From IMG/VR virus record IMGVR_UViG_3300030107_000800, positions 14,501 through 78,500 of that record: a stretch of 64,000 bases of DNA; one strand, 5' to 3'. The notes below the pieces were generated by a model. That model was not told the origin of the DNA. It did no database searches and was given only the letters and a program-made list of their open reading frames with translations. Of this stretch, positions 39,486 to 64,000 are shown one piece after another (positions within the stretch are counted from its first letter, which is position 1; every line of letters begins with the position of its first letter). Source of the DNA: a virus. A program made the position numbers and the translations under genes.

Positions 39486-39493
39486 TATTTAGT
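39486..39493 (-). promoter_or_regulatory. Late promoter variant (ACTAAATA)
   Basis: About 25 nt upstream of 39461. Confidence 0.55.
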
Positions 39494-42400: not shown

Positions 42401-43856
42401 TCCTACTTCCAGTACCCTGATTACCTGCTGTTGTACCAGCAGCACCTGATCCACCACCAGCAAATACTTCATATATTAATTTGTCTGGAGCACCAGTTAT
42501 ATTTCCTAAATTTATACTATAATTTCCTGGTGTAGTATATGTCCATTCATTAGAATAATCATATATTGGAGTACCACCTGTATTAACAGTTCTTCCACCA
42601 ATAACAGATGATCCACTGAATTTTCTAAAGACTGGACTAGGTATAAAAGTTTGGAATACATATGTTCCTACACCACTAGTACCTGAAGCAAGATACTTTT
42701 GTTCTGATGCTGTTACAGTTGGGTCTTGAATTGTTCCAGGACCACCAGCACCACCAGCATAATCAAGTACATCATATGTACCAACAGTATTATCTGTATT
42801 TGGTTGTCTTAATAATCCATGACTATGTGTAAAGACCTGTCCAGTTGTAGGATACCATCTTGTTATTCTTCCTGTTCCTTCACGATAATCTTGTTGGTAT
42901 CTATCACCACTAGCCTCTTGAATCCATGAGTTAGTACCTGCTTGTGCATGATAAACTGTATGACTGTGTTGTTGAGCACCAGAGAGTTTAGTCTCTCTCA
43001 TACTTATCTCAACTGTCTGCTGTCCTATTATAGTACACTCTGTAGTTTCAACTACATTCTCATATCCAGAAGTAACTATCCTACCTAATGAAAAATAATT
43101 ATCTTGTAATGTCTTATCTAAGTACCATCCACCACCTGTAGTACCCACACCCATTGAAGAGTTTGCTATAGTTGGTGAGTTCTGACCCCATACAGGGCCA
43201 TTACCAACTACTTTCTTGGCAACCATATTAGGAACTTTAAATGTTCCCATTAATGTATCACCTAAAAAATCTAATACATTATTCTGAGTTATACCTTCTA
43301 ATGATCCATCATTAGGATTAATTCTTGCTTGAACTGTAGCTTGCGTTGATGCACCACCACCAGTAAGAACTACATTAGGTGCAGTAGTATATCCAGATCC
43401 TTGTTCAAATACTGTAAGAGATATTACTACACCATTTACAGCAGTTGCAGTAGCAGTAGCAGTAGTTCCTCCTGGAGTTGATGGAGCATCAATAGTTACA
43501 GTTGGATTACTTGTATATCCTACACCTCCTGTTAATATATCTAATCCATTACTAGCAGTTCCACCATAATCATTACCAATTATTTCAAATAATCCTGGAT
43601 AATCATTTATATTATATTCTGTGCCATCACAATATAAGTATCCCTCATGTGTATAAGCTGGATCATCACCAGCTTGATATGCATTACCAGTATTTTCACT
43701 TAATGCTGGAAATGCAGCTGCACCTGCTTTAATAAAACTATGATCATAAGAATTTGCACCAGCCTTAAGGTTAGGCACAATAGCACCTATAGGTGTTGTG
43801 TCTGTTAAGATATCTGTTAGATATCCTGTCCTTGCATTTCTATAAGTCTGGGTCAT
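39489..43856 (-). CDS. Tail fibre with collar domain, Gly-rich segments and lectin-like inserts
   Basis: PIGAI..GYLYCDG..DYPGLFEIIG..YG collar motif; poly-Gly runs; ends YLIKAY. Confidence 0.85.
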   Translation of the reverse strand: MTQTYRNARTGYLTDILTDTTPIGAIVPNLKAGANSYDHSFIKAGAAAFPALSENTGNAYQAGDDPAYTHEGYLYCDGTEYNINDYPGLFEIIGNDYGGTASNGLDILTGGVGYTSNPTVTIDAPSTPGGTTATATATAVNGVVISLTVFEQGSGYTTAPNVVLTGGGASTQATVQARINPNDGSLEGITQNNVLDFLGDTLMGTFKVPNMVAKKVVGNGPVWGQNSPTIANSSMGVGTTGGGWYLDKTLQDNYFSLGRIVTSGYENVVETTECTIIGQQTVEISMRETKLSGAQQHSHTVYHAQAGTNSWIQEASGDRYQQDYREGTGRITRWYPTTGQVFTHSHGLLRQPNTDNTVGTYDVLDYAGGAGGPGTIQDPTVTASEQKYLASGTSGVGTYVFQTFIPSPVFRKFSGSSVIGGRTVNTGGTPIYDYSNEWTYTTPGNYSINLGNITGAPDKLIYEVFAGGGSGAAGTTAGNQGTGSRIKVGDGAEVDLVVGGGGGGQGNVGMGGGTGGIGGSAVNNGSVNVIGGATGAAGQTGANAPTSPGWLYSQYPNDPQGGGNGALATVDPYSSGSNGVNVLVGGQTGTYDQTLDLTIGLYTRNWVAIGTAQLSTGTAGVWSQFMKDHAIYKTFPGLSNPDPYYGDWLECVIEITATGGNSYDVEFASDNEATMHWTGAINDLGTTNNSPAAGTTTSTNVTIGPVDAGLNRVTFRVRNTGSINQNTWSDNPGGLAFEIKDAGTNNVVAESRANCTGGSNTSPTTIFPDTNLIANPTSATFTMWGAKGGRSHRGNYQGSSGGYLQVDLVSGELTTFQSQVWSVEIGRRAGQAIGVSPWQVAQNNVAGASNDYNSGNGGQGGNGHGVNAGGGGGASTLIKRGSLIIAGVGGGGGAGSDGDDGGTGTVGIGPPQGVDATTQALGAGQGGVGGNYTCVGGGGGGGGGGVARNGLTFGGSGNGGGSAGDGGGPGGDGQHQGGAGGRQGISSYRSDYLENASFAETHSRASTDLIQRGEAAVRLQVEYNNDYWTAGGGGGAAGGSFVGNIDFSFLNDPADITVEVGTGGAGVSMGGQTTGSSASAGNGYAKIGLGTITGYEGGQTGTTTGDIIESASQDANVWDVDIFGNGTGTGSAGSFALPTASQVPDVIFAGGGATTNAAGSVTLSGAGTVNAISLDSNGAGYQSQPYVYIMNGVSGGTTATATVDEAAGQVSGLTLTPASSQSYTQYVKFGGLSGNGGTRWINLRPVDTTNCNYFSIKACRGNGVNGGNTPEESLRVYYQLSGSTNWNLIDTIISPISVRNDPIIGNVPLIENTWDGNGTTNWYTYSVAVPEAARATDTRFRLEQPRATPSGANDNADDSDHYGIIEFIWWYSQVSGLVFQQSPGAISKPLVDSLTYTVEGETGPGITYSSGLGASDAKLTLKSTTKIEPQATIDPDIHVPLLHPYRTCKYLIKAY

Positions 43857-46917: not shown

Positions 46918-49900
46918 TTATAACTCCATTAGCCACCATCCGCGTAGTGCAGGTGGTATTGTTCTTGAATTTGCAGATCCCTCAATGTCAACCGTACCAG
47001 CAAATACTAGTCCGAATGATGCATTGCGTGTCTGAATAACCAATTCACCTGAATCCCATGCTGTTGCTAGAGACTGACCATTTCCTGCATCTAACTTAGA
47101 TCCAGTTGAATCACCCTGAATAGCAGTGGCAATACCACTAATCTTCTTCGCTCTAATGATTAGACTTGTGTTATATGTTAAGTTTCCACTTAATTCAACG
47201 AATCTAATCATATCACCTGTTTGTGGATTATCTGGTAGATATAGAACTATGTTACTTCCAGAAGATGAGTTAACAAGATAGTTATTATTAACCTGTAGTG
47301 GATTATCTATCTGCTGTCCTACACCAGTAGCAGTATCGAATGCGACATATGTATGTCTTCTACCACCATTTCCTGTCCAGTATTTCTCAATACCAAATGA
47401 ATCAATAGCGTTGTTCTGATAGATTCTAAAGTCCTTAGCACCTTCAGTACCACCAACTCCAGCAGATCCAAGGTTATCAATGTGGAACATTGTCTTGGAT
47501 GCAGTCTCAGTCTCGTAGACCTTACCTGCTTGATAGTACTCTTCACCTAAGAATACATTACCTTCTCTATTAGTAACTTTAAATGTTGTTACATCAGAGC
47601 AGAGACCAAATGCCTGACAGTTCTCATAGTTGATCTTAAGATCACCACCAAGTTGAGCTCCACCATGTAATGTTAGTCCAGAAGTTGATGTCTTCGCATC
47701 AGCAAGTGATCCGTCTCCAGAGTGGCCATCGTCATTAGCGATAGACATAACCAGAGTCTGACCATCAGAACCATACATTCTGAGGTTACCACTGTATATC
47801 TCAACGTCATCGTGAACAGTTAGTTTACCACCACCATATAGATCAACTAAAGGAGTACCAATAGTATTTGGATTTCTAATTTGCTTAGGAGTCTTAACAG
47901 CGAAGCTAATATCATTAGAACCATCAACACTATCAGGTATGAACCACTCAGTTCCAATTCTGACGTATGTTATATAATCAAGTTTAGGAGCAATTAGATC
48001 AGCATCACGTAATGTAATCTCAAGTCTGATATCACTTGTGTTAGGTGTTCTAGCCTTAAGTGCAGTTGCTCTATCACCCTGTGTTGCAGGTACATCATGT
48101 AATAATGTAGTAGTTCTATCATACTTGTCTAACTTAACAACATTAGCACCTATCGAGAATGCTTGTGCTGCTGTTCCTTCTAATCCTCTACCTCCAGATG
48201 GATACTGAGCATTAGTAGCTGTTGGAAGTATTAGTTCTCCACCACCACCTGTGTAAGGATCATCAGTAATCTGAATAACCTCGATTGCAGCACCAGCACC
48301 ACTTACATAGATTGCAACCAAGTCACCTTTCTGGAATGCAGTTAGGTTACCTTGAATCTCAATGTTAGATGTGGCAGTTACAATATTGTCCGCAGTAGTA
48401 GATGAAGGACCACCTGATATAGTAGACTGAGCATTATGTCTATAAACATATACTACATCATTATCTTTACTGTATCCAGCAGGAGATGAACCGAACTGTT
48501 CAGAAAGCATGAATACTGTTCCATGCTGATTACCAACATCTGTATTACCTGTGCAAGTATCAACCTTGAATATATCAACAGTCTGATTATTAGTAATCTT
48601 AAGTTTTCTGTTGGTATCTGCATCAATGTATGGTGTTGTGCATGTTCCTGTTAGGTTCAATGAACCACCAATATTTGCATCACCACCAGTTACTAATGTA
48701 CCATCAGTAGAATCAACAGAGAATACTGACTCTTCTTGTGCAGTATCACAACCATTCTTAATATAGAAACTCTTAGCTACCTGTGATAGGAGAGTTTCAA
48801 CCTTGAATAGTTCACCTTGATCATCAACACCATCAGCAGGGACAGTAGTATCTTCACGATCAATGATTACATAATCACCAAGATCTATATCTCCACCAAA
48901 CTGTGATAGATATACATCTTCTGATACTCCACCAGAATCAATTGCACTAGTAATCCATGTAGCATCATACTGAACATTACACTTATAGATTGGAGTTGTA
49001 TCAGGATGATCTGATCTTGTTGTTGTCCATGTACCAAATGGTAGTCTCTCAACTACAATATAGAATGGAGCAGTACTAATCCTTGGTAGTGAAACGATCT
49101 TAACAAATTCAGGATGTAATGTACCACCTGAATCATCTGTATCAATCAATAGAATATCATTCTCATTGAAATACTGATTACCACCAGCATCTTCTGGCTT
49201 ATTCTTAATAGGTAGATAGTATTGATTACCAGTTAGAGCAGGTAAAGTCTGAGGTTCAATTACTGGTACTCCACCAACATTAGGAATCTCTTGCTGGAAT
49301 GTTGCTCCACCCCATGCACCACTACCAGATGTATCAACTTGGTTGTAAGTATCAATCAGAGTATTGTTTGAAGTCACTCTTAGAACATCAACCAAATCAA
49401 CGTTGCTGTTGAATAGATTGTTACCAAGTACTCCACTAGCATGAGCAAATGCAGTTGATCCTGCCTGTGCTCTCTTAGCACTGAATGAGTAAGAAGCAAA
49501 TCCACCGCATAGAGTAACATCAGCATTGAATCTAGCAGTAGCATCAACAATCAGGTTATTTCTAATTGTTGTAGATCCACCTTGACCAGCAATCTTAATT
49601 TCAGAAGCATTAGTTGCAAAGTCAAGTATAGATGTGGCCGAGTTACCAGAGAAGAATTCTACCTTCTGGGAAGTAGAACTTAATTTAACGATACTACCAG
49701 CACCAGATCTTCTAGATCCTAGTTCTGCATCACCATCTATCTTAAGAACTTTAGTCTTAATTCTAGTAGCAGATAATGATTCGTTATTATCATATGCACC
49801 ACCAATATCAACTAGTGATATTGTAAGAGCACCATCTGAAGCACGGTTGTCTGGTGTAGCACCTAATCTTATGTTACTATGAAGTGAACTACGTCCGATA

Positions 49901-52900
49901 TTGATAAACTGATCTGCTTCAGTTGTATCACCAATAGCAATTGTAGTTGCATTCTGACCAATATTAAGTGTTCCAGTAAATCCTGCTGAATTAACAAGAT
50001 TAAATCCACCTGTTGTGATCGTTGTTGTTATGTCAGCAGTATTAGCACCACCTCCACCATTAACTTCTACATCTTGTAAGAAGATAGCATTATCAGTGAA
50101 CTTGGAAGTACCACCAACATAGAATGTACTATCAAGTGATGCATTATCAACATTAATACCAATACGATTATCAACAGTATTAACTCTGAATAGTGCAGAA
50201 TCTGTAGGAGCAGCACTATCACCACCAACTAAGAATGCAGATGTACTACCAGTTTCAGTCTTAACTGTTCCTGTCTCAGTTAGATAAGAATTAATTGTCT
50301 TACCACTGATGAATGTAGTACCTACAACATCTAAGTTAGCACGAGGTTCTGTTTCAGCAGATACAAATCCCTTCTGGTATGCACTATGTGCAGAACGTGC
50401 AATAGTGTTAATACCAAGTTTGTAATCACCAATAGTGTCAGTTTCTGTTCTTAATGCTTCTGAACCTAGTACGCCAACTTCTTTGAATGAAGAGTTAGAG
50501 AACTCAACAGTTGGATTTGGTTGGCCACCTGGGACATTAGCAATAATATCTCCATTCCAGTTAAGTGTCTCATTTGCTAATGTTATACCTTCAGCAACGA
50601 AGTGAACATAGTTATTAGTACCTGAGAATGCATCTCCATTAGGTGAAGCAACTTGGAATGGTATGGAATTAAATCCAGCATTATGATAGAAATCATTAAT
50701 TCTAATCTGAGATCCAGATGTAATACCAAGATCATCATTAGTAATATCAAGTCCTGTGTTAGATGACTTGAATGTTAACTTAACTAGACTTCCAGAATTA
50801 ATAAACTCAATAGTGAATATACTTGTATCAGCAATTGGTTCATAGTAGTTTGCATATATCCATCCAAGTGAACCAGTTCTTCCTACTTCCTTACCTTTGA
50901 GTAAAACATCACCTGGTCTTGGTAAGACATTACCATACATGGTGTATTGTTCACTAGCAAGTCTAGTTCCACCAGGGTTGCCAACCAAATCACTGTTGTT
51001 TGGTGTCATATTAGATGGAAGAGAACCAGTACCACCAGTATGTGTCTGGAACATGTACTCTTGACCATTACCTCTGGCATTAAATCCAAAGATAGCAGCA
51101 TTAACACGGTTCTTACTGATCTGAATATCACCCTTAGTTGGTGGAGTGAATGCAGTTCTACTTAATGACTCATCTTGTTCTAGTTGTGTTACAGGATCAA
51201 CAGATGATACATTAGAACGAACAATAACAGCATGACGTTCCTGTGTTAGATCATTATCCTGTACAGATACAATTAGAGGAGATTCAAATGTATTAGGTAG
51301 TGTTCCTTCTCCACCAACGACTGTAATATTCTGGTTGAATGTTACAGGGGTGTCAAAGGTAGTAACTAGACTTCCAATTACATCATCCTTATCTCCATCA
51401 TCTTGTAATGTAGCAGCATCTATAAATGTTTCTTCACCTGTGATAGCATTGATTCTTCTATTACCAATGTACAAGTCACCTTGTGAGTTAATACCAGTGT
51501 AGAATACAATACCACCATCTTGCTTCTTAGACTGAGCATAGAAGTCTTCTTCTGGTGTTAGAACTACTTCCTGTCTAGCTGGTAGACCAGTTGAGTAGTT
51601 ACCTGGACCAAAACCAAGGTATTCAAATGTGTGGTTACCTGCTCTTGCGATAGATGGTCGTCTAAGTTCAACATAGTATCTCTGATCTGAGAGAACTGTG
51701 CTGTTACCAGCGATAGGAATTAATCTATCTTCTGATCCAGAGGTTGCATTACCAAGTTGTGCCTGAATCTTATTAGAACCAGTATATGTGTTCTCAATGA
51801 AAGCAGGTTGTTTAATTAGATCCTCAACACCTTCTCTTGTTACAGAGTTCTTATAGTCGTTAACTGTAACTAAACCATGAGTATAGTTATCAGCAGCAGA
51901 GAACGCTTGAGGTGGATCAATTAAATTAGCATATAGATTTTTCTCTTCGTTTGTTGTACCTGAGTTCTTAAACCAGAGAGGATCGTTTCTGTAGTTTAGA
52001 GGATATAGTTTGCTAACTGGCTGAGAGAACTTGAATCTCTGGAAGTTTCCACCAGCACCAGCACCAGTTGGGAATGGTGACATGTTACCACGTAAGCAAG
52101 TTAGATAGTAAACACCATCTTGCTGACCTGCGATACGTTTCTGTAATGTCTCATAACCAAAGATGTAGAATGTATCATCAATGATACCAGCATCAGTAAC
52201 AGACTCAACATAGTATTGAACACCAGCACTGTCAGTTACAGTATCACCAGGAGTAATAGTGTAAACATTTGCACCATCTTGCTTATAGTAATACTCAGGA
52301 TATCCCTTAGCGATCAAGGTCTTAAGTGGTAATGACTTACCAAAGTCCTGATCCTCTACCATATCAGCGAATACAGATCCTTGAGTGAATCTAGTTTGAG
52401 TGAATTCTGAGAACTCTAATTTTCCGCCGCGTAAATTTTTCAGAATTAGGTAATGGTCACTTCCAACTGAGTAGTAGCCATGTATATTACCAAGTCCAGA
52501 TGAATTACCAGTCCATTCAATTTGGTTAGCAGTAATACTCTGTGTCTTACTGGTTATAAAGTCTCCACCTTGAGGAGCAGTGATCTTAACTGTTGTAAAC
52601 TTATCGTTTCTTAATCCAGGATAGTTAACAATGTCAACTGCATGGTCATAAACAGTTAGTTCAAGATAATTGATAGAATTATCTAATTGATCTGCTACAT
52701 AACGAGCACCCTGAATTGTGGCCTGAATACCACTGGTTGTACGAATAAATGCACGGTAATCAATACCAGCACCAGTTAGATCCTTTCTATATGGATCATA
52801 TGCAAGATCTTTGTTTAAGTTATTGGATGTAAAGTCTGTATCAGTGTATCCAATATATTCACCTGCTTGTCTTGGGTTCTCGAACCTAGCACCAAATTGG

Positions 52901-55900
52901 TTACCACTTACAGGTTTCAATAAGATCTTCTGTGGAATTATCTTACGAGTATCGTCAGTTCTTGTCTTGATAACAAATCCATTGATAGGATCTCTTGCGT
53001 TCTCAAGATACTTAGGAATAACATAACGTAACTTGTATGTTCTTTCATCTGCCTCACGAACATCCTTAAGACGCTCATACCACATATCAGTGGTCTTAGG
53101 TCTATCAGCATAATCATTCTGATGAATTCTCCAGAATATATTATCACTGCTTGTATGCTCATCCTTAGTCTGAACATACCACTTACCAGTTGTAGTTACA
53201 TTATCAGTGAATCCAGGTTCAAACTGGAATGGACTTCTACGCTTGTTAGCAAATACATTAAATGATAATGTTTGTCCAGACTGGAATGTTATTGGATTTG
53301 CTCCAGTAATAGCATCAGCATGTGTTTCATGGATGGTAAATACCTTAGCATTTTGGTAACGAGCATAGAACTCTGTCTTACCATTAAGTCTACCAGTAGC
53401 AAGATCTGCAACTGCTGAATTATTACCACTAACATATGTTGTAGCAACTAAAGGTAAGTCACCACCATCAATTCCTCTAAAGAATACTCTATGAGGAGTA
53501 GTAGATGCAGATGGCTTATCAAAGATATTTGAAATATCAGTTTCAATACCAGCATTAACTGCATTAGTTAACTCACACTTATATGTGTGAAGATCGTACT
53601 TATCATCAAGAACAAACTGATAGATATCAATCTCAACATCAGGATCAATAGCATCAGTTTCAGATGCATAGATGTAGATACCAGCAGCAGCATTTTCTTT
53701 TGATGTTGCAAGCATCAACTTGGTTTGATCACTACCATTGAAGAATGTAGTACCATTATAATTTTCTGGTACTGTAACTCTACCTGGAGCAATTACATAG
53801 TAGATTTGGTTAGTAGAGAATCCATTAGGTAATCTAACAAGTCTCTTATCAACCTCAACATACTTCTGTGTGACTGTATCGAAACGGGGTCTTGGAACCA
53901 ATCTTACGGGAGTTCCAGTCTCGAAGTCGTGAGCATTAGATGAACCAGTACCAGTTGTATCAATAGTGAATACAGTTGCTCTGGAAGCAAGTAATGCAGT
54001 ATTAACTGTCTGTTCTTGACGAGTAACTGATCCAACACCACTGTTAATAATTGTAGTACATACTCCTATCAATGTGTCGATAGCAGCAGCTGTACTTGCA
54101 CACTGTAAAGATCCAGGAGCAGTTGTTGTATCCTGAGTGATAGATGTATCTGTTTGAGGTAATGTATCAGCCCATGCACCTTTAGTGAATGCAAAGAATA
54201 GATTAGTTGTGCTACTTGTTTGTAAAGTATTGACTGTGTTACCAGTAATTAATCTAGAATTGATAACACCAAGTTCAATCTTAGTATTATCAACAATTCT
54301 CTTAACATATGTTCCTTCTGGTATGTTAGTATAAATTGGTGTTGCACCAGGTTGTAATGCACCATTGACATAAGGTGATACACCAGTCTCATCATACTCA
54401 GTAACACTCATACCAATGATGATACCTCTTGTATCACCAACATCAACTATAGCTGTCTGATCAGTAGAGCAATTGAATACAAGAACATCAAAGTTCCTCA
54501 TAGCAGCAGTTGCTACTGATCCAACATAGTTGTAAGCATCAATAGTTTCTGCTTTCTCAGCATCAATAAAGTCTAGGTTATTACCAACGAAGTAAGATTC
54601 ACCAGCCTGAACACTATTAATGTTACCACCAAGTCTTAAGTCATTAACAACAGCATCTGTGATGAATGCAATATCACGGAAGCACTTAGATGACTCACTG
54701 TTAAGAGTAAAGTCTCCTTTATTAACTGTAGGTAGGCCACTGATATTACCAGCAGTAATAGAATCTGTTATGATGTCATATAATGTTTCTATTGTACCAC
54801 GAACGTTAGCACAATCCCACTCACCACTGCTTAATGATGGTAGAGTGTCTAATGTACCTGACTTCAATGCATCTCCAACAATACCAATCAAGGTATCGAC
54901 AGTAGCAAGAACATCAGAACAATTACCAAAGGCATATGTACTTGGATGTGTTATCGTTGCTGCTCTTGGATAAGCGTGCTTAGTAGCATTATTATCTGTA
55001 GCACATGTGAAGATTAATGACTCAGTTCCTAACTTAACACTCTCACCTACTGTTAGTGAGTGAGAACCAATAGTTAGTACCAATTCACCTGTTGTTGGAT
55101 TGTAATCAGCAGCAGTAGGTGTATGCTCTACATTTGTGGTAGTTCCAACGTTAATCCAAATCTTACCAGTCTGTCTCCAAACTCCATTACTTGTTGCAGA
55201 TACGAATGTATGAGCATACTGAGCATTAGGACCACCTTTACCAATGAATACATCAAATGAATTTTGTGTTACATTAGAGATAGGCAACCACTCATTGTAG
55301 AATGGATCAGATGTTCTTGGATATGTCTTATTAACAGTATTACCATCCTTCAAGCATGTGAATGTTAAAGAATTATCTGCAAATTTAATAGAATCATTTG
55401 TCTTCTCAATTCCATTAGCAGTTGCAGATACAAATGTATGTACTGAAGAGTTAGTAGATGGAATACCTAATAGAACATTAACTTCAATTGTATTAGCAGT
55501 TACGTTAGTAACAGATAACCATCTTCCACTTACAGGATCAGTAGCACGAGGATATGACTTAACATTACCTGTTGGATTAGCAATACCAACGTTAACTGTA
55601 ATAGTTGTAGCAGTTACAGCAGTGATGGCAATGTTTGTACCAGATACAGGGTCAGTTGATCTTGGATATGAATGATTAGTTGCATGATTGTCAGCATCAC
55701 AAGTAAATGTAATACCACCGTCTGCAATCTGAATTGTATTAGCAGTTGTAAGACTGTGAGTACCAAGAGTGATCTGCATATCACCACTGACAGGATTGTA
55801 TGTTGTACCAGCCTGTGCTGTGAAGTTAGATGCACCAGATGAGATAGCATCAGCAACACCACTTACAAATGTATGAGTACCAGTAGCAGCACTACACTCA

Positions 55901-58900
55901 AATGTTAATGAGTTATCTGCAATTCTTATCCTATCACCATTTCTATAGGTGTGATTAGGAATTGTAAGAACTAACTGACCAGCAGCAGCATCATAAGAAC
56001 CATTAGTTACAGTATCATATGTTGTAGCATTGAATCCATGATTTGCCATTCCAACGGTCAAGACACCAGTTGCAGGATCATATGCTGTACCAGCTCCTGC
56101 TGTATGGAATGTCTTGTCTACAGCATCAATATCAACTGCTGTGTTGTATATTGGATCTGTTGATCTTGGATAAGACTTAACAGTCTCGTTATTGTCCATT
56201 CCACAAGAGAAGAACAATGAATCATTAGCAATCTTCACACCATCTGTCATCATTAGATTGTGTGTTCCAATATCTAATATTAATCTTCCAAGTCCAGCAT
56301 CATAAGTTGCGTCTGAAATATCATACTTAACTTGTTCCGTTGTACCAACATCAACTGTGATTGTTGTTCCAGTAACAGCAGTAATTGTAACTGCCTCACC
56401 AGCAATAGGATCATTACCAGGACGAGGATATGTCTTGTTATCAGTATTGCCATCCATCTCACAAGAGAATGTCAATGAGTTGTCAGCAATCTTAATGCTT
56501 GTACCAACTGCTAATGAGTGAGCACCAATAGTTAATACTAGATCACCTAAAGCAGGATTATAAGTTGCACTACTTACATTAAACTGAACGATAGGTGATG
56601 AACCTACATTAACTGTAAATGTATCTGTAGTTACACTTGTAATTGCTAGTGATTGTCCAGAAGCAGGGTCTGTTGAACGTGGATATACATGCTGACTAAC
56701 ATCATTATCCATATCACAACTGAAGGTTAATGCACCATCAGCAATGGTAATAGTATTAGCAGTTGATAATCCATGGCCTACACTTGTGAATGAAATATCA
56801 CCTGAAGCAGGATCATATGCAGCACCCGTTACTGTGTATTGAGTACCCGTATTTGCTGTGATTCCATTATTAACAGCAGATATGAATGTATGTGTATAGT
56901 TACCACCAGATGATACAGCACCAGTTGTAGCAGATACAAATGTGTGAGCATATGCACCACCAGTGATCAATGCACCTTTAGCAGCATGTGAGAATGTATG
57001 AGGATAGTTACCACCTGAAACTACTGCACCTGTAGATGCACTCAAGAATGTATGAACTGACTTATCAGGAGAAGGTCCAACATTAAGAGTAATTGAAGTT
57101 GCATCAACAGCACTAACTGGCAATGCAGTATCATATGCTGGATCAGATGTTGATGAAATTACTCTACCAACTCCACCTGCACCAACATTAACTGTGAATG
57201 TATCAGTAGTAACTCCAGATACTTCTATTTCCTTACCAGAAACAGGATCTGTTGTTCTAGGATATGAATGTTGTGAGAAGTTATCATCCTTATCACATGT
57301 GAATGTCAATGAATTGTTAGTGATGATTATCTTATCACCATTACTTAATCCATGAGATGCAGCAGTGATAACTAAATCACCAGACTGTGAAGTATAAGTT
57401 GCATTAGTAGCAGTTAATGATCCACCAGAAACTATTGTTATTCCACTAGCAGTAGCACTAACAAATGTGTGGTTGTAATGATCTGTTACTGCATCATAAC
57501 CAGCAGCAGTTCTAACGATACCAGAAAGATTACCAACACCACCAGTTGTAGTTCCAAGTGACTGTATAAGGATACCAATTAATGTATCAACATCAGCAAC
57601 AACTGAACCGCAATGTGGTAAGTTAGCAGGTAGATCCCAATCTTCTACGATTGTTAGATCCTTAGTCTGAGTTAGTGGGTTGTTACCATTAACACTAACT
57701 GTTAGGTTGTTAAGAACTTCTATTGCAATGCTGCTAACATACTCATAAACACGAACGATCTCATCTCTTCTATCGTCTTCAATAACTGTTGTGTAGTTAA
57801 CTCCACCAAACTCATTAGTAATGAATCCTTCAGCAACATCATATGTCTTACTGTTACCACCGAACTTAACATCCCATGTAACTTCTCTTAAGACATCATA
57901 GATATCATCTAAACAATCCTGCATTGTGTTGCCAGTAGAAGGAGTATATGAAGGGAAATCTACCTTCATTCTTTCATATGCTTCTCTAGCAATAAATTCT
58001 TTATTTGTACGAATTAGATCATGTGCATCAGCGTGCATGTTAGAGACTATTGCTGGTTCTCCAACCTGATCTAATGTGATTGTTGTATCCTTAACATAGT
58101 ATAGGTTGTTAAGAGAACGATTCATCAAGTCAGCAGCACGTTTGAATGCTGTGATTACTGGATCAACTTCTCCTTGAACACCATTACCTAGTAATGTGTT
58201 ACCATCGAAGTACTCCTTAGTAGCAGCGATAGTAAATTCATTACCACCGAACCACAAGTCTTGTGCAACAGCATCAACGAAGATACCCATGTCTCTACGA
58301 CACTTAGCTTCACCTGTTAAGAATGTTCCTGCGTTCTCTACTGGCATACCAGCAAGAGTACCATTAGTAATGGCATCTGTTACGATAGTACCAAGAGTTA
58401 CGATTGCTGACTGAACATCAGAACATAAAGCATCATTGTACTGATTAGATGTATTACCAGCAAATGTAACTGCACTAGCAGATGCACTTACAAATGTATG
58501 AACTTCATTTGTAAACTTAGCTCTACCAACATTAACTGTGATAGTATTAGCATCAGCAGCAGTAATTTCAATATATGCTCCGTTTACAGGGTCACTGGAA
58601 CGAGGATAACTCTGTTGTCCTACACTTCCTTGATAGTTACAACTGAATGTAAGAGATCCAGTAGCAATATTAACTCTATTACCAACACTTAATCCATGAG
58701 CATTCATGGTTAGAACTAAGTCACCTGTAGCAGGATCATAAGTTGCAGTAGAAGGAGTAAACTGTTGCTGAGTCTGGCCATAAGGTGATCCAGGAGCATT
58801 ATCAGCAGTGATAGTTAAATCCTTATCATACATTGACTGTGTAACTGCCTTTCTCATTTGAGTTACAGCAGCATTAAGAGCAGTTGTATATTGAGTCTGC

Positions 58901-61900
58901 TCTCCAACAAAACCATTAAGGATAGGTGTTGTTGTATCAGAGAAGTATTGTTGTGCAAATGCTCTTGTATGCTTGTTACCAGTGGTATACAAGTCAGTAG
59001 CAACAGCATCTATAAAGATACCAATGTCTCTGAAACACTTACTCTCATGTACTCCACCAGATCCATTGTTGATCTCTTTTGGTAGAGAGTTAAGATTACC
59101 AGCAGTAATAATATCTGTTACAATAGTACCTAGAGTATCAATAGTTGCCTGTACATCAGCACAGTTATACTGAGTATTAATTGAGTTATCTGTATTAGCA
59201 CCAAAGATAACTGAATCAGTAGCAGCTCTTACAAATGTATGAGTTGCTTGTGGAAGATGCTTAATTGCATTATTTGAAGCAGTTACAAATGTATGAGTTG
59301 TATTTGGTCTGAACTCAACAGCATCAGTAGATGCAGAAACCCAAGTATGTGCTTCGTTGTTACTACCAGTACCAACACCAACGTTCATTGTGATCCAACC
59401 ATCTTGTCTGTCTACACCATTTGAAGTAGCAGATACAAATGTATGATTGAATTGACCGAATGATCCTGCTGCACCAACGTTAACATCGAAGGAGTTAGCA
59501 GTTACATTACTTACAGCATACCATCTACCACTAGCAGCATCGCTAGTACGAGGATAAGTATGTGTGCTTGAATTATTATCCTTATCACATGTGAATGTCA
59601 AAGAATTATCAGCGATCTTAACGTAATCGCCATTTGAGAATCCATGTGTAGGAATTGTAAGAGTTAGTGCTCCAGTTGCAGCTGTGTATGCTGCGTTAGT
59701 TACTGTATGCTGAGTAGCACCAACATTAGTAATTAGAATTGACTTACCAGCATAAGGGTCAGTGCCTGGTCTTGGATATGATCCATTACCACCGCCACCA
59801 AATCCACAACTGAAGGTCAATGAATTATCTTTAAGAACAATACTTCTACCAACACCGATACCATGCTGACCAATATTTAATGTTAAGATACCAGTTGAAG
59901 GTTCGTATGTACCATCAGTAGGAGTGAAGTCTCTATTACTACCAGCAGCATTAATATTAACTGTGATAGTACCATTAGTATAATCTACTGCTGTAATAGT
60001 AGCAGACTTACCTGAATACTCATCAATACCAGCACGAGGATATGTCTTGTTAGTACTATTACCATCCATAGCACAGGTAAAGGTCAAAGAGTCATTCTCA
60101 ATGACAATTCCTTCACCAACTGCTAGGCCATGAGTACCGATTGTTAGTACAAGATCACCTGTAGCAGGATCATAAGTAGCATTACTTGGTGTCCACTGTT
60201 GATCAGCACCAGCACCACCAATATTTACAGTGATTGTGTCAGCTGTTATAGTGGTTATCTGAACATACTTCTCATAGTTTGAACTTGCAGATGTAGGATA
60301 TGTCTTCTGACTTGCATTACCATCCATTCCACATGTGAATGTTAATCCATTCTCAGCAATGTTAATGCAATCACCTGTAGTTAATCCATGACCTGCGATA
60401 GTTAATACAAGATCGCCTGAAGTTGGGTTATATGATGCATCTGTTGGTGTGAATCTCTTTTCATCATTCTCACCATAATCAGATCCAGGTGCCTTATCTA
60501 CAATAGTTAAATCTTTAACGAAGAGTTGGTTAGTAACCGCCTTCTTCATTTCTTCTTTTGCTTGAGCAAAAGCAGCATTTGCTTCTGCCTCTTCACCCTC
60601 AACACCATTTGTTATAGGTGTAGTAGCATTCTGGAAGTACTCAGCAGCAAATCTATATGTGTACTCATTACCTTTAATGAATAAGTCAAGAGCAAGAGAC
60701 TCAACGAAGATCTCAAGGTCTCTACGACACTTAACTTCACCTAACTCACTAACATAACTGGTTTCTGCTGGAAGACCAGACAAGTTACCAGCACTAATAA
60801 CATCAGTTACAATAGTTGTAAGAGTTGCGATTGCATTCCTTACATCAGCACAAGCTGCTGGATCTGTATTAGGAACATTAGCACCACCAGCAATATAATC
60901 TGCTGGACCTGAAGTTAGGGTAAGATCCTGAACTGCTAATTGGTTACTAGCAGCAAGTTGCATCTGATCCCTTGCTTGGTTGAATGCATAATTTGCTTCT
61001 GTCTCTTCACCAGATAGTGAGTTACCGAAACTAGATGCAAACTTACGTGCATATCTGTTACCACCCATGAATACATCAAGAGCAATAGCATCTATGAATA
61101 TACCTGTGTCTCTTCTGCACTTATCTTCATACTGAACATGATTAGGATATGCAGTAAGAGTATTGGCCCATACTGTATTGATAATAGAAGCTTTGTTCTG
61201 TAATATTAAACGATAACCATCTGCAAATCTGGAAGATGGAGTAGTTGCAGCATCTCCAGTATGATAGAAATCTGGATGTTGTACTGCAATATTACCAAGA
61301 CCACGATCTACGATCCAGTCTTTGTTTTGCATAATCAAACGATATGCATCAGCAAATCTTGATCCATCATCTGTTTCTGCATCGTTAGGGAAGTAGAAAT
61401 CAGGATGATCCATAGTAATTTGTGCTATGGCCTTATCCTTAATCTCCTTACTGTTACGACGGATGAATCTAAATGCATCACCAAATCGTGATTGTGAATT
61501 AGTTTGTGTATCTCCAGGACTATAGTAATCTGGATGATATACTGCTACCTCAGCAACAGCACCATCAAGAATATAATCTTTGTTTGCTATGATTAAGTTT
61601 CTAGCATCCTTATTACGACTAGCAGAACTTGTAATTCTATCTGCGTAGATAGTAACTGAGTTAGTTGCTGCACTTACAAATGTATGTGCATATGCACCAC
61701 CAGAAATTACAGCACCAGCAGTAGCAGATACGAATGTATGTGCATACTGATCTCCAACAGAAGCAGCAGCACCAACATTAATTGTTATAGTACCATCTTG
61801 TTTCTTAATACCATTGGATACTGCTGATACAAATGTATGAGCAGATACATCAGAAGAAACACCAATGTTAACTTCAAATGTATTTGTTGATACGTTAGAA

Positions 61901-64000
61901 ACTGGTAACCACTGACCACTAGCAGGGTCAGATGATCTAGGATATGCATGGTTGGTAGCATTATTATCCTTAGCACAACTAAATGTGATTGATCCATCAT
62001 CTAATTTAACTGCACCATTTGCTTTCTCAACACCACCAGCAGTTCCTGATTGGAATGTATGTGGAAAATCTCCAAGAGTTGTAGATCCAACATTAACCTC
62101 AAATGTATTCGTAGTTACATTTGAAATTGGTATCCACTTGTTGCTAACTGGGTCAGTTGATCTTGGATATGTTTTCTGTTGAGCACCACCGTCTTTAGTA
62201 CATGTGAATGATAAAGAATTATCTGCGATCCTTATCTGATCACCATTATTAAATCCATGATTACTAATAGTTAATACTAATGAACCTGATGATGGTGTAT
62301 ATGTTGCAGCAGTTACAGTTCCTGTAGTTGGAGCAGTAATACCATGACCAGCAACAGTTAGTTGCAATGCTCCTGTGGAAGGAGTATAAGTTGCATTTGT
62401 TGCTGTTATGTTAGAAGATCCAACACCAGTAATTGCTATTGCAGTATTAGCAGCAGGATCAGTTCCTGGACGTGGATATGACTGTGCTACACTATTACCA
62501 TCCTTAGTACATGTGAATGATAGTGAGTTATCTGCTAACTTAATGGAACTACCAGAATCTAAATTATGTGTTCCAACTGTGAGAACCATCTCACCACTTG
62601 CTTCATTATATACTGCATTAGAAACATCATAGTTAACTATAGGTGATGCACCAATATTAACAGTAAGTGTATCACTAGTAACTGAATTGATTGCTAACTT
62701 CTTATCATATGCAGGATCTGATACACGAGGATATTTCTTCTGTGATACATTATTATCCATTGCACATGTAAATGTCAATGAATCACTAGAAATCTTAAGT
62801 GTATCAAGTACAGTATAACCATGCCCTACAACTGTTAGAACTAAGTCACCTGTAGCAGGATCATATACTGCATTAGTTGGAGTATATGAAGCACTGATAG
62901 CATTAGCAGGGTCAATAGTAATAGTCTCATCTGTTACTGTTAACAGATTAGCGATTGCTTGCTTAGATAAATCTCTTGCCCTATTGAAAGCATAAACTGC
63001 TTCTCTTTCTTCACCAACTACACCATTTGCGATAGCATTTCCACTACCATCAAAGTATGTCTTTGTTGCTTCTATAATATTAGCGTTACCACCATCTCTT
63101 AAATCTTCTGAGATAGCATCAACAACATATCCAATGTCTCTCTTACACTTATCTTCAGCAGAAGAATGTGCAGGATATGTATCTACCGTCTTCTGCCATG
63201 CAGAATTAACAATCTCTTGACGGTTTGCCTGAATTAGATCACGAGCATCTGCATATCTATTTGCAGCAGGGTCTAGGCCAGGATTTACATAGGAAATATT
63301 TTTTAGATCTGGGTATTTCTCAAGAATGTATCCGAATACCTCTTCTTGGATCATGCGTCTGTTGCTTTCAATCAAGTTAGCAGCGTCAGCATATACATTA
63401 TTAATAGCATATCCACTTGGATTTAATATAGATCCTTTAGCGATATACTTAACAAAACCTGTTGGTTCTAGAGTTACATTAAAGAACTCATCACCAACAG
63501 CACCTTTCTCAAGTTTTACGTTTAATTTTTCATTTGTTTTAGCACCAAGTCTATATCCTGTAATTGTTGCAGCAGGACGAGTCAATGGGTCTATAATATC
63601 CTCACTACCTAAGAATAACTTAGTATAGTTGGTAGGATTTTGAATTGTTCCTTGAATATCAACAGTATAATATTGAATCTTCTCTACATTAGTAGCACTA
63701 TCTACAACCTGTTGAGGAGGAATAATATCAGTAATATATCCACCCTTATCTTGGTTAAAGGAGAATCCCTTATGACCAATAGCATGTAAGGATGTATTAC
63801 CAAAGTTACTGTTAGAGTTGGTGATACTCATATCACCACCACTTTCCATTAGGAAGTGATCAGCATAACCAACAGCGAAGATACTAACACACTGAATGAA
63901 TGCATCTTCTGAAGCACGAACGTGGAAGTTTCTCCAGTCATCCTTCCAATATGAATCACCCTTAGTATGGTAAGGTACTGTTGCAAATGCATCTGTTAAG
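46918..64000 (-). CDS. Giant virion structural protein / fibre (>5,690 aa, 5' end outside window)
   Basis: The frame stays open from 63849 to the window edge (LTDAFATVPYHTKGDSYWKDDWRNFH...); contains repeated beta and helical modules; C-terminus LPDNPQTGDMIRFVEL...GWWLMEL. Confidence 0.9.
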   Translation of the reverse strand, partial: LTDAFATVPYHTKGDSYWKDDWRNFHVRASEDAFIQCVSIFAVGYADHFLMESGGDMSITNSNSNFGNTSLHAIGHKGFSFNQDKGGYITDIIPPQQVVDSATNVEKIQYYTVDIQGTIQNPTNYTKLFLGSEDIIDPLTRPAATITGYRLGAKTNEKLNVKLEKGAVGDEFFNVTLEPTGFVKYIAKGSILNPSGYAINNVYADAANLIESNRRMIQEEVFGYILEKYPDLKNISYVNPGLDPAANRYADARDLIQANRQEIVNSAWQKTVDTYPAHSSAEDKCKRDIGYVVDAISEDLRDGGNANIIEATKTYFDGSGNAIANGVVGEEREAVYAFNRARDLSKQAIANLLTVTDETITIDPANAISASYTPTNAVYDPATGDLVLTVVGHGYTVLDTLKISSDSLTFTCAMDNNVSQKKYPRVSDPAYDKKLAINSVTSDTLTVNIGASPIVNYDVSNAVYNEASGEMVLTVGTHNLDSGSSIKLADNSLSFTCTKDGNSVAQSYPRPGTDPAANTAIAITGVGSSNITATNATYTPSTGALQLTVAGHGITAPTTGTVTAATYTPSSGSLVLTISNHGFNNGDQIRIADNSLSFTCTKDGGAQQKTYPRSTDPVSNKWIPISNVTTNTFEVNVGSTTLGDFPHTFQSGTAGGVEKANGAVKLDDGSITFSCAKDNNATNHAYPRSSDPASGQWLPVSNVSTNTFEVNIGVSSDVSAHTFVSAVSNGIKKQDGTITINVGAAASVGDQYAHTFVSATAGAVISGGAYAHTFVSAATNSVTIYADRITSSASRNKDARNLIIANKDYILDGAVAEVAVYHPDYYSPGDTQTNSQSRFGDAFRFIRRNSKEIKDKAIAQITMDHPDFYFPNDAETDDGSRFADAYRLIMQNKDWIVDRGLGNIAVQHPDFYHTGDAATTPSSRFADGYRLILQNKASIINTVWANTLTAYPNHVQYEDKCRRDTGIFIDAIALDVFMGGNRYARKFASSFGNSLSGEETEANYAFNQARDQMQLAASNQLAVQDLTLTSGPADYIAGGANVPNTDPAACADVRNAIATLTTIVTDVISAGNLSGLPAETSYVSELGEVKCRRDLEIFVESLALDLFIKGNEYTYRFAAEYFQNATTPITNGVEGEEAEANAAFAQAKEEMKKAVTNQLFVKDLTIVDKAPGSDYGENDEKRFTPTDASYNPTSGDLVLTIAGHGLTTGDCINIAENGLTFTCGMDGNASQKTYPTSASSNYEKYVQITTITADTITVNIGGAGADQQWTPSNATYDPATGDLVLTIGTHGLAVGEGIVIENDSLTFTCAMDGNSTNKTYPRAGIDEYSGKSATITAVDYTNGTITVNINAAGSNRDFTPTDGTYEPSTGILTLNIGQHGIGVGRSIVLKDNSLTFSCGFGGGGNGSYPRPGTDPYAGKSILITNVGATQHTVTNAAYTAATGALTLTIPTHGFSNGDYVKIADNSLTFTCDKDNNSSTHTYPRTSDAASGRWYAVSNVTANSFDVNVGAAGSFGQFNHTFVSATSNGVDRQDGWITMNVGVGTGSNNEAHTWVSASTDAVEFRPNTTHTFVTASNNAIKHLPQATHTFVRAATDSVIFGANTDNSINTQYNCADVQATIDTLGTIVTDIITAGNLNSLPKEINNGSGGVHESKCFRDIGIFIDAVATDLYTTGNKHTRAFAQQYFSDTTTPILNGFVGEQTQYTTALNAAVTQMRKAVTQSMYDKDLTITADNAPGSPYGQTQQQFTPSTATYDPATGDLVLTMNAHGLSVGNRVNIATGSLTFSCNYQGSVGQQSYPRSSDPVNGAYIEITAADANTITVNVGRAKFTNEVHTFVSASASAVTFAGNTSNQYNDALCSDVQSAIVTLGTIVTDAITNGTLAGMPVENAGTFLTGEAKCRRDMGIFVDAVAQDLWFGGNEFTIAATKEYFDGNTLLGNGVQGEVDPVITAFKRAADLMNRSLNNLYYVKDTTITLDQVGEPAIVSNMHADAHDLIRTNKEFIAREAYERMKVDFPSYTPSTGNTMQDCLDDIYDVLREVTWDVKFGGNSKTYDVAEGFITNEFGGVNYTTVIEDDRRDEIVRVYEYVSSIAIEVLNNLTVSVNGNNPLTQTKDLTIVEDWDLPANLPHCGSVVADVDTLIGILIQSLGTTTGGVGNLSGIVRTAAGYDAVTDHYNHTFVSATASGITIVSGGSLTATNATYTSQSGDLVITAASHGLSNGDKIIITNNSLTFTCDKDDNFSQHSYPRTTDPVSGKEIEVSGVTTDTFTVNVGAGGVGRVISSTSDPAYDTALPVSAVDATSITLNVGPSPDKSVHTFLSASTGAVVSGGNYPHTFSHAAKGALITGGAYAHTFVSATTGAVSSGGNYTHTFISAVNNGITANTGTQYTVTGAAYDPASGDISFTSVGHGLSTANTITIADGALTFSCDMDNDVSQHVYPRSTDPASGQSLAITSVTTDTFTVNVGSSPIVQFNVSSATYNPALGDLVLTIGAHSLAVGTSIKIADNSLTFSCEMDGNTDNKTYPRPGNDPIAGEAVTITAVTGTTITVDVGTTEQVKYDISDATYDAGLGRLILDIGTHNLMMTDGVKIANDSLFFSCGMDNNETVKSYPRSTDPIYNTAVDIDAVDKTFHTAGAGTAYDPATGVLTVGMANHGFNATTYDTVTNGSYDAAAGQLVLTIPNHTYRNGDRIRIADNSLTFECSAATGTHTFVSGVADAISSGASNFTAQAGTTYNPVSGDMQITLGTHSLTTANTIQIADGGITFTCDADNHATNHSYPRSTDPVSGTNIAITAVTATTITVNVGIANPTGNVKSYPRATDPVSGRWLSVTNVTANTIEVNVLLGIPSTNSSVHTFVSATANGIEKTNDSIKFADNSLTFTCLKDGNTVNKTYPRTSDPFYNEWLPISNVTQNSFDVFIGKGGPNAQYAHTFVSATSNGVWRQTGKIWINVGTTTNVEHTPTAADYNPTTGELVLTIGSHSLTVGESVKLGTESLIFTCATDNNATKHAYPRAATITHPSTYAFGNCSDVLATVDTLIGIVGDALKSGTLDTLPSLSSGEWDCANVRGTIETLYDIITDSITAGNISGLPTVNKGDFTLNSESSKCFRDIAFITDAVVNDLRLGGNINSVQAGESYFVGNNLDFIDAEKAETIDAYNYVGSVATAAMRNFDVLVFNCSTDQTAIVDVGDTRGIIIGMSVTEYDETGVSPYVNGALQPGATPIYTNIPEGTYVKRIVDNTKIELGVINSRLITGNTVNTLQTSSTTNLFFAFTKGAWADTLPQTDTSITQDTTTAPGSLQCASTAAAIDTLIGVCTTIINSGVGSVTRQEQTVNTALLASRATVFTIDTTGTGSSNAHDFETGTPVRLVPRPRFDTVTQKYVEVDKRLVRLPNGFSTNQIYYVIAPGRVTVPENYNGTTFFNGSDQTKLMLATSKENAAAGIYIYASETDAIDPDVEIDIYQFVLDDKYDLHTYKCELTNAVNAGIETDISNIFDKPSASTTPHRVFFRGIDGGDLPLVATTYVSGNNSAVADLATGRLNGKTEFYARYQNAKVFTIHETHADAITGANPITFQSGQTLSFNVFANKRRSPFQFEPGFTDNVTTTGKWYVQTKDEHTSSDNIFWRIHQNDYADRPKTTDMWYERLKDVREADERTYKLRYVIPKYLENARDPINGFVIKTRTDDTRKIIPQKILLKPVSGNQFGARFENPRQAGEYIGYTDTDFTSNNLNKDLAYDPYRKDLTGAGIDYRAFIRTTSGIQATIQGARYVADQLDNSINYLELTVYDHAVDIVNYPGLRNDKFTTVKITAPQGGDFITSKTQSITANQIEWTGNSSGLGNIHGYYSVGSDHYLILKNLRGGKLEFSEFTQTRFTQGSVFADMVEDQDFGKSLPLKTLIAKGYPEYYYKQDGANVYTITPGDTVTDSAGVQYYVESVTDAGIIDDTFYIFGYETLQKRIAGQQDGVYYLTCLRGNMSPFPTGAGAGGNFQRFKFSQPVSKLYPLNYRNDPLWFKNSGTTNEEKNLYANLIDPPQAFSAADNYTHGLVTVNDYKNSVTREGVEDLIKQPAFIENTYTGSNKIQAQLGNATSGSEDRLIPIAGNSTVLSDQRYYVELRRPSIARAGNHTFEYLGFGPGNYSTGLPARQEVVLTPEEDFYAQSKKQDGGIVFYTGINSQGDLYIGNRRINAITGEETFIDAATLQDDGDKDDVIGSLVTTFDTPVTFNQNITVVGGEGTLPNTFESPLIVSVQDNDLTQERHAVIVRSNVSSVDPVTQLEQDESLSRTAFTPPTKGDIQISKNRVNAAIFGFNARGNGQEYMFQTHTGGTGSLPSNMTPNNSDLVGNPGGTRLASEQYTMYGNVLPRPGDVLLKGKEVGRTGSLGWIYANYYEPIADTSIFTIEFINSGSLVKLTFKSSNTGLDITNDDLGITSGSQIRINDFYHNAGFNSIPFQVASPNGDAFSGTNNYVHFVAEGITLANETLNWNGDIIANVPGGQPNPTVEFSNSSFKEVGVLGSEALRTETDTIGDYKLGINTIARSAHSAYQKGFVSAETEPRANLDVVGTTFISGKTINSYLTETGTVKTETGSTSAFLVGGDSAAPTDSALFRVNTVDNRIGINVDNASLDSTFYVGGTSKFTDNAIFLQDVEVNGGGGANTADITTTITTGGFNLVNSAGFTGTLNIGQNATTIAIGDTTEADQFINIGRSSLHSNIRLGATPDNRASDGALTISLVDIGGAYDNNESLSATRIKTKVLKIDGDAELGSRRSGAGSIVKLSSTSQKVEFFSGNSATSILDFATNASEIKIAGQGGSTTIRNNLIVDATARFNADVTLCGGFASYSFSAKRAQAGSTAFAHASGVLGNNLFNSNVDLVDVLRVTSNNTLIDTYNQVDTSGSGAWGGATFQQEIPNVGGVPVIEPQTLPALTGNQYYLPIKNKPEDAGGNQYFNENDILLIDTDDSGGTLHPEFVKIVSLPRISTAPFYIVVERLPFGTWTTTRSDHPDTTPIYKCNVQYDATWITSAIDSGGVSEDVYLSQFGGDIDLGDYVIIDREDTTVPADGVDDQGELFKVETLLSQVAKSFYIKNGCDTAQEESVFSVDSTDGTLVTGGDANIGGSLNLTGTCTTPYIDADTNRKLKITNNQTVDIFKVDTCTGNTDVGNQHGTVFMLSEQFGSSPAGYSKDNDVVYVYRHNAQSTISGGPSSTTADNIVTATSNIEIQGNLTAFQKGDLVAIYVSGAGAAIEVIQITDDPYTGGGGELILPTATNAQYPSGGRGLEGTAAQAFSIGANVVKLDKYDRTTTLLHDVPATQGDRATALKARTPNTSDIRLEITLRDADLIAPKLDYITYVRIGTEWFIPDSVDGSNDISFAVKTPKQIRNPNTIGTPLVDLYGGGKLTVHDDVEIYSGNLRMYGSDGQTLVMSIANDDGHSGDGSLADAKTSTSGLTLHGGAQLGGDLKINYENCQAFGLCSDVTTFKVTNREGNVFLGEEYYQAGKVYETETASKTMFHIDNLGSAGVGGTEGAKDFRIYQNNAIDSFGIEKYWTGNGGRRHTYVAFDTATGVGQQIDNPLQVNNNYLVNSSSGSNIVLYLPDNPQTGDMIRFVELSGNLTYNTSLIIRAKKISGIATAIQGDSTGSKLDAGNGQSLATAWDSGELVIQTRNASFGLVFAGTVDIEGSANSRTIPPALRGWWLMEL

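Follow-up and report, generated by a model that had tools for sequence, protein, structure and literature searches.

How can one protein chain carry the pieces of seven similar helical domains, scattered over some 3,100 residues, in an order that reads like balanced parentheses? The question is raised by a giant virion gene of tail-fibre type in the viral record IMGVR_UViG_3300030107_000800 of IMG/VR, of which we analysed positions 14,501 to 78,500 (64,000 nucleotides, hereafter the window). Our answer, which we hold with considerable confidence, is that the giant fibre arm of this T4-like cyanophage is built of nested domains of the phycobiliprotein fold. The gene product is most likely a tail-fibre-type protein of a marine T4-like cyanophage in which seven copies of that fold sit one inside another, up to six deep.

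The gene itself is as follows:

46918..63999, open beyond the window end, minus strand: giant virion (tail-fibre-type) open reading frame (ORF), 5,693 codons in the window.

The ORF runs off both the window and the 78.5-kb record, which is 40% complete, and, as the ORF is cut by the record end, the ATG at 63849 is internal. Residue numbers below refer to P0001, the translation of 46921-63849. A full-length twin, P0002, has 6,139 residues and is 98% identical to the window protein; it supplies the approximately 496 N-terminal residues that are missing from the window. The C-terminal 2,373 residues match the PHROG profile phrog_4527 (E = 0, 2,257 bits), named 'short tail fiber'; the name is the annotation label of that database, and the place in the virion and the function are predicted from it. 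The nearest named phages are the T4-like cyanomyoviruses ACG-2014e, S-CAM4, S-RIM44, Syn1 and S-RSM4.

Three kinds of helical parts recur in the protein, and they were located with regular expressions and then with hidden Markov models (HMMs) built from the seven copies of each. The N part is 30 residues long and consists of two short helices, with the motif R-[FY]-A-D-A..L-I..N and a proline at its end. The M part, approximately 85 residues, has three helices and K-C-x-R-D at its start; its second and third helices follow directly after the first and did not figure as a separate part in the preliminary description. The last part, which that description called the C-type helix and we call X, reads C-x-D-V...I-x-T-L..I-V and ends in G-N-L-x-G-L-P. 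The N parts start at residues 153, 199, 746, 789, 832, 875 and 1939 (window positions 63393, 63255, 61614, 61485, 61356, 61227 and 58035), the M parts at 234, 910, 1040, 1604, 1849, 1978 and 3055 and the X parts at 1000, 1563, 1809, 2080, 2977, 3013 and 3250. The N and X models gave no cross-hits between part types, and an HMM scan of the missing N-terminal region, read in P0002, found no further N, M or X.

Along the window protein, the parts follow one another as NNMNNNNMXMXMXMNMXXXMX. This string has a valid last-in-first-out parse, 1(2(3(4(5(6))) 7)), with six levels and one fork; such a parse exists for 7,752 of the 399,072,960 ways to order seven N, seven M and seven X, a chance of 1.9e-5 for a random order. 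The preliminary description had proposed seven copies of each part at these positions and in this order, their nesting as parentheses, and a module 1 split by about 2,900 residues of insert. The part HMMs recovered the counts, positions and order, the parse holds and the distance from N1 to M1 is 2,870 residues.

What the parts would fold into is indicated by profile searches. PF00502 (phycobilisome protein) scores 25.4 bits on residues 1-1500 against a curated cut-off of 22.2, the best stretch being N2-M2 (profile positions 29-83 of 155); a second stretch, in module 7, reaches 16.7 bits and stays below the cut-off, and many relatives carry the family in their precomputed annotation. The earlier statement that linear HMM scans miss the domain therefore stands only in part: the family passes its threshold, but the scans see only contiguous N-M stretches and, of these, only profile positions 29-95 of 155. 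In a single-sequence search against PDB sequences, N2-M2 aligned with residues 32-107 of C-phycocyanin alpha (E = 0.02); the N3-M5 stretch gave no match in such a search and needed a profile. With a profile of nine contiguous modules, 89 distinct PDB sequences were matched at E ≤ 1, and all among the 60 matches listed were phycobiliproteins. Sequence identity of the modules to phycobiliproteins is 10-19%. In the profile alignment, the module cysteine aligns with the bilin-binding Cys82 of C-phycocyanin beta; KCxRD is found in six of the seven M parts, M7 having DCLDD with the cysteine kept.

Two AlphaFold2 (AF2) models extend the comparison to structure. The first, of the 548-residue N3(MX)3 region of a 1,140-residue relative, was made from 38 aligned sequences and has a predicted local distance difference test (pLDDT) score of 86 and a predicted template modelling (pTM) score of 0.85. 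It matched about 230 phycobiliprotein chains at Z ≥ 8; the best matches (Z 16-17, root-mean-square deviation 2.0-2.3 Å over 130-139 residues) place model residues 95-253 on chain residues 31-177, so that the last N, the first M and the first X form one complete core and X takes the place of helix H. The second model covers residues 787-1848 of the window protein (1,062 residues, 31 aligned sequences, pLDDT 77), and its N6, M6 and X6 (model residues 82-233) lie on residues 28-177 of phycobiliprotein beta with Z 17 and a root-mean-square deviation of 1.7-2.1 Å over 128-134 residues. Since X aligns as the C-terminal helix H in both models, it belongs to the preceding module and is no stand-in for the next N. 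On these predictions, one and the same phycobiliprotein globin core takes its helices A/B from N, its helices E, F' and F/G from M and its helix H from X. Across the run N3-N6, AF2 gives two helices per N, the mean pLDDT of 10-residue blocks being 73-92 over the helices and 62 in the block of the N4-N5 linker. The second helix of the preceding N was further seen at the place of the X/Y helix of phycobiliproteins (model residues 56-72 on chain residues 1-16, with ranges starting at chain residues 1-9); as many of the phycobiliprotein alignments extend into this helix, the N of the neighbouring module would sit where light-harvesting subunits have their X/Y hairpin.

With helices and modules assigned as predicted by the models and the parse, the arm reads as follows, from its N-terminal to its C-terminal end:

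63304..63393 (residues 153-182), minus strand: N1, helices A/B of module 1, the outermost; found by HMM, contacts M1 in the two-chain fold, covariation best with the M at residue 3055.
63166..63255 (residues 199-228), minus strand: N2, helices A/B of module 2; found by HMM, aligns to C-phycocyanin residues ~40-68.
62890..63150 (residues 234-320), minus strand: M2, helices E to G of module 2, with KCKRD; found by HMM, contacts X2 in the two-chain fold.
61630..62862 (residues ~330-740), minus strand: beta-repeat array A, with which the insert into the G-H loop of module 2 begins; HTFVSA strands at residues 671, 704 and 722.
61138..61614, minus strand: N3 (residue 746), N4 (789), N5 (832) and N6 (875) in tandem with a 43-residue period, outward path of modules 3-6; HMM and AF2.
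60754..61122, minus strand: M6 (residues 910-993) and X6 (residues 1000-1032), which with N6 make the contiguous innermost module 6; AF2 match to phycobiliprotein beta.
60475..60732 (residues 1040-1125), minus strand: M5; found by HMM, its partner N5 suggested by the parse.
59185..60462 (residues ~1130-1555), minus strand: beta-repeat array B, G-H loop of module 5; the all-strand region 345-765 of the AF2 model.
59065..59163 (residues 1563-1595), minus strand: X5, helix H of module 5; HMM and AF2.
58780..59040 (residues 1604-1690), minus strand: M4; HMM.
58450..58767 (residues ~1695-1800), minus strand: beta-repeat array C, G-H loop of module 4; translation and AF2.
58327..58425 (residues 1809-1841), minus strand: X4; HMM.
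58051..58305 (residues 1849-1933), minus strand: M3; found by HMM, and N3 has its best covariation score with it.
57502..58035, minus strand: module 7, contiguous, with N7 (residue 1939), M7 (residue 1978, DCLDD variant) and X7 (residue 2080), branching off sideways within the G-H loop of module 3; found by HMM, second PF00502 stretch.
54940..57492 (residues ~2120-2970), minus strand: beta-repeat array D, G-H loop of module 3; translation.
54715..54921, minus strand: X3 (residues 2977-3009) and X2 (residues 3013-3045), closing helices H of modules 3 and 2; found by HMM, X2 contacts M2.
54421..54687 (residues 3055-3143), minus strand: M1; found by HMM, its E and G helices contact N1.
54115..54417 (residues 3145-3245), minus strand: beta domain of ~100 residues, G-H loop of module 1; translation.
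53995..54102 (residues 3250-3285), minus strand: X1, closing helix H of module 1; HMM.

Whether the distant pieces find each other was addressed with a two-chain fold in ESMFold2, chain 1 being residues 145-330 (N1, N2 and M2) and chain 2 residues 3006-3290 (X2, M1, the beta domain and X1), with 31 sequences per alignment. The score was 0.86 (runs 0.85, 0.86 and 0.88), against 0.00 for the best of three controls; the mark for this score is reached by 58 of 80 solved complexes and by 2 of 110 mismatched pairs. At least 74% of the contacts were shared between runs, with a partner pLDDT of at least 73. The surest contacts join N1 (chain 1, 13-28) to the E and G helices of M1 (chain 2, 55-66 and 103-111) and M2 (114-118 and 144) to X2 (18-25), and are thus nested and not in tandem, as had been anticipated. 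A pass in ESMFold2 may reflect likeness to solved folds; here, that fragments complete a phycobiliprotein core is the claim itself.

Covariation points the same way. A pair-score model trained only on 492 contiguous N-M pairs chose, in the seven-module family, the nested partner for the noncontiguous N1 (the M at residue 3055) and N3 (the M at residue 1849). In the 12-module family, it chose the nested partner for N1, and N4 alone tolerates M7, though the first M scores best by a hair. A first-in-first-out pairing was also considered and rejected, since the first M always follows directly on the last N and the nested pairing had the higher score of the two in 94 of 94 proteins. Paralogy among the copies in the window protein adds to this, the similarity matrices under nested pairing correlating with r = 0.56 for N and M (a value reached by 11 of 5,040 pairings) and r = 0.82 for M and X (40 of 5,040), with noisy agreement between nearest paralogues (2/7).

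The same grammar is followed by the relatives. We collected 240 of them and, with the window protein, surveyed 241 proteins by an iterated HMM scan; 153 parse perfectly, all of them among the 199 proteins that have two or more N and two or more X. These perfect parses span 15 distinct architectures. The simple forms are N3(MX)3 (8 proteins), N4(MX)4 (46), N5(MX)5 (3) and N6(MX)6 (2), and the double forms include N3(MX)3N2(MX)2 (11 proteins), N3(MX)2N2(MX)3, N4(MX)4N3(MX)3 and N4(MX)4N6(MX)6. A 12-module form, N10(MX)7N2(MX)5, nested ten deep, occurs in 16 proteins. The giant forms have 9, 7 (42 proteins), 6 (14), 5 or 4 modules, all balanced, and their tandem N run shrinks from four to three, two and one in step with the number of MX units that follow. 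The seven-module string of the window protein is shared by the culturable S-RSM4 type. Orthologue insertions and deletions had been expected to preserve the balance of the parts and to involve whole nested units, and this is what the 9-, 7-, 6-, 5- and 4-module proteins, the N^k(MX)^k series with k from 3 to 6 and the 10+2 forms display. Strings that balance only as a whole (10+2 = 7+5; 3+2 = 2+3) are hard to explain except by pairing. No unbalanced intermediate was found among the clearly complete proteins of the surveyed relatives.

Several observations weigh against the nested arrangement. All the structures are predictions, and the pTM of the window-protein model (residues 787-1848) is 0.51. 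An attempt to read the pairing of the outer modules from the ranges of structural matches failed, all 50 matches listed per search falling on the innermost contiguous module, and none of the outputs shows contacts for modules 3, 4 and 5. The covariation score does not separate N4 from N5. Reversing the pairing in the simple N^k(MX)^k relatives leaves the paralogy correlation at the same level or raises it, so that the correlation provides no discrimination there. Finally, 46 of the 199 relatives with multiple N and X do not parse; most are one weak X short or are cut proteins, though not each one was checked. The strength of the evidence is accordingly uneven along the arm: modules 1, 2, 6 and 7 are supported by model evidence, and for modules 3-5 we infer the pairing from the parse, the rule seen across the family and paralogy.

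The likeness in position of X and N allows the parts to be read quite differently. X precedes M at nearly the spacing of N (approximately 37-42 residues), with a conserved G-L-P linker, and relatives of the P0005 type carry 15-17 contiguous units of 108 residues, each an N-like part plus M, without X. Each M could then be served by whichever helix precedes it, N or X; the extra N would make up a helical repeat of their own, and the 7/7/7 balance would have arisen by chance. Such tandem units ([N or X]-M) were indeed our own first reading, but the structural alignments and the family survey ruled them out: both AF2 models show X as the C-terminal helix H in one core with the N and M that come before it, and the balance holds across the 15 architectures, including the one with 10+2 = 7+5. 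With, in addition, the lack of cross-hits between the N and X models and a two-chain fold that sets X2 on M2 and not on M1, we give the tandem alternative hardly any credence. A different challenge comes from the fact that tail fibres are usually oligomers: N and M-X could pair one to one between the chains of an oligomeric fibre, as a domain swap with no intramolecular hairpin, and the stoichiometry, the covariation and the two-chain fold are all blind to the difference between pairing within and between chains. However, the innermost N-M-X always forms an unbroken stretch in which a short link joins N to M, and at least one pairing per run must therefore be intramolecular; with a pTM of 0.85, the N3(MX)3 monomer is modelled confidently as a single body, and branched strings such as N10(MX)7N2(MX)5 come naturally with a chain that folds back but are awkward for a regular swap. 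We consider the swap improbable.

How the nest grew is a separate matter. The preliminary description had proposed recursive insertion of whole modules into the loops of their paralogues, and this is only partly supported. Under the nested pairing, N, M and X show mirrored paralogy both in the window protein (the N-M correlation given above) and in P0004, where the three parts agree on the sister of modules 4, 5 and 6; the pattern would favour duplication of whole modules. The comparison of the seven-module protein with a six-module orthologue is ambiguous: N4 and N5 both map to one N, and M6 and M5 both to one M, so that the additional N cannot clearly be matched with the additional M. That mapping leaves room for a history in which the nest is real but its layers arose from tandem duplications that affected the N run and the MX run in balanced pairs, selection keeping the two in step. 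Regular tandem arrays such as these two runs readily undergo unequal crossing-over, and paired duplications in them would yield identical strings. Set against the mirrored paralogy and the lack of the unbalanced intermediate, which was not seen among the clearly complete relatives, this history appears to us somewhat unlikely, though a serious contender.

If the nested arrangement is correct, the stretch of 3,100 residues would be one closed excursion of the chain through seven globin-like domains of phycobiliprotein fold. Each domain would offer two loops for insertion: the B-E loop, which would host module 2 in module 1, 4 in 3, 5 in 4 and 6 in 5, and the G-H loop, into which module 3 (within 2), module 7 (within 3) and every beta-repeat array would be set. 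On its way out, the chain would lay down N hairpins 43 residues apart, turn at the contiguous module and return as M-X units, each of which would zip onto the N laid earlier. The product would be a stalk that is both stiff and beaded; with its pTM of 0.85, the three-level model fits one rigid body. The beta arrays would project from the G-H loops of the stalk as likely binding surfaces; both the stalk shape and the role in host binding are inferred. As each excursion would end where it started, layers and arrays could be added or lost without moving the conserved N- and C-terminal parts of the fibre, and the flanks N1-N2-M2 and X2-M1-X1 would stay together. Among uncultured cyanophage contigs of IMG/VR, the stretch between these flanks ranges from approximately 2.2 to 8.0 kb, and the flanks themselves are conserved (mean column identity 57% for N1-N2-M2 and 73% for X2-M1-X1); the coming and going of whole layers and arrays would explain the range.

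Among known proteins, the modules resemble the beta subunits of phycobiliproteins (phycocyanin, phycoerythrin and the cryptophyte beta chains), sharing the globin-like core from helix A to helix H and the Cys-Arg-Asp of the Cys82 bilin site. The subunits, however, are single contiguous proteins of 160-180 residues that form alpha-beta rings, whereas the fibre would hold seven cores, mostly discontinuous, inside a protein of ~6,100 residues. That the fold can host insertions is known from the core-membrane linker ApcE, the phycobiliprotein domain of which tolerates the PB-loop; this is a single short loop insertion, with no paralogous domain and no recursion. In the tip of the long tail fibre protein gp37 of phage T4, the chain likewise runs out and returns, but as an intertwined trimeric beta needle without nested globular domains, and our analysis found no sequence or fold relation between it and the fibre arm.

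The architecture comes closest to Si3 of the beta' subunit (RpoC2) of cyanobacterial RNA polymerase, in which paralogous domains are recursively inserted (A1-B1-C-B2-A2) to form a multilevel, forked, out-and-back arm. With six levels and eight hybrid-motif domains, Si3 was the most complex case in an ECOD-wide survey of 2.7 million domains (PMC13114784). In the fibre protein, the same type of order extends over six levels with one fork and, in the predicted two-chain structure, the separated pieces of the host domains meet in space for modules 1 and 2. The building blocks differ: Si3 consists of small beta sandwich-barrel hybrid motifs in a cellular enzyme, while the fibre arm would use an all-helical phycobiliprotein core in three pieces, split at two loops, in a phage virion protein, and its relatives reach ten levels against the six of Si3. 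We considered and rejected membership in the sandwich-barrel hybrid motif family, the nested unit being all-helical and of phycobiliprotein type; the arm would work like Si3 without belonging to it. In the literature searched, neither domains of the phycobiliprotein fold nor nested domains were found to be described for cyanophage fibres.

Recursive self-insertion would then have a second case, independent of the first and deeper, in another fold class (all-helical, with two split loops), and the ten-level relatives of the arm would represent the deepest domain nesting described. With hundreds of natural variants of 3 to 12 modules, the rules of insertion tolerance and balance become directly testable. 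The nest would explain the hypervariable arm of 2-8 kb inside a conserved fibre gene, its length changing by whole layers. Giant cyanophage proteins of this kind have hitherto carried only the labels 'short tail fibre' or 'hypothetical', and linear scans see at most a fragment of the fold in them. It would also tie a light-harvesting fold of the host to the virion.

Whether the cores bear pigment is a natural question. A conserved cysteine (C-x-D-V) stands at the start of every X, in the G-H loop immediately ahead of helix H, for example at 60850-60852, 59161-59163, 58423-58425 and 54811-54813, roughly the place of the second bilin cysteine of phycobiliprotein beta subunits. Judged from sequence motifs, both beta-type bilin attachment sites, KCxRD and the X cysteine, may thus be kept and, since most modules have the Cys-Arg-Asp site as well as the X cysteine, seven stacked cores could carry pigments. 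It is a speculative and, in our view, doubtful idea that the fibre is a chromophore-bearing, light-responsive rod of putative pigmented cores, its length set by the nested layers. If true, the pigmented fibre would be a substrate for the bilin-synthesis and lyase genes of cyanophages, whose role is unexplained (PMC3037559). Genes for CpeT and bilin reductases had no match in the 78.5-kb record, which at 40% completeness says nothing about the whole phage.

Some further observations concern the beta arrays and the family at large. Each beta-repeat array closes with consecutive HTFVSA strands (three, four and four copies, at 61686-61839, 59241-59445 and 56892-57054), as if the beta repeats were themselves nested and closed one after another. 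In the relative P0010, one N is parted from its M by approximately 2,600 residues of beta repeats, and, in P0074, an M is split between its first and last helices by a beta array of ~400 residues, which gives the fold a third place for insertions. P0005-P0008 and P0012-P0018, giant proteins of a sister group, consist of the 15-17 contiguous 108-residue units described above, in short tandem blocks and with no nesting; the X helix is not detectable in this group. The N-terminal region missing from the window resembles, as seen in P0002, a domain of beta-helix type. Three more very long ORFs lie on the minus strand downstream of the fibre gene, at 1-7149 (>2,383 residues), 9070-19380 (3,436 residues) and 39489-43856 (1,455 residues), the last of which lies only 3 kb from the fibre gene.

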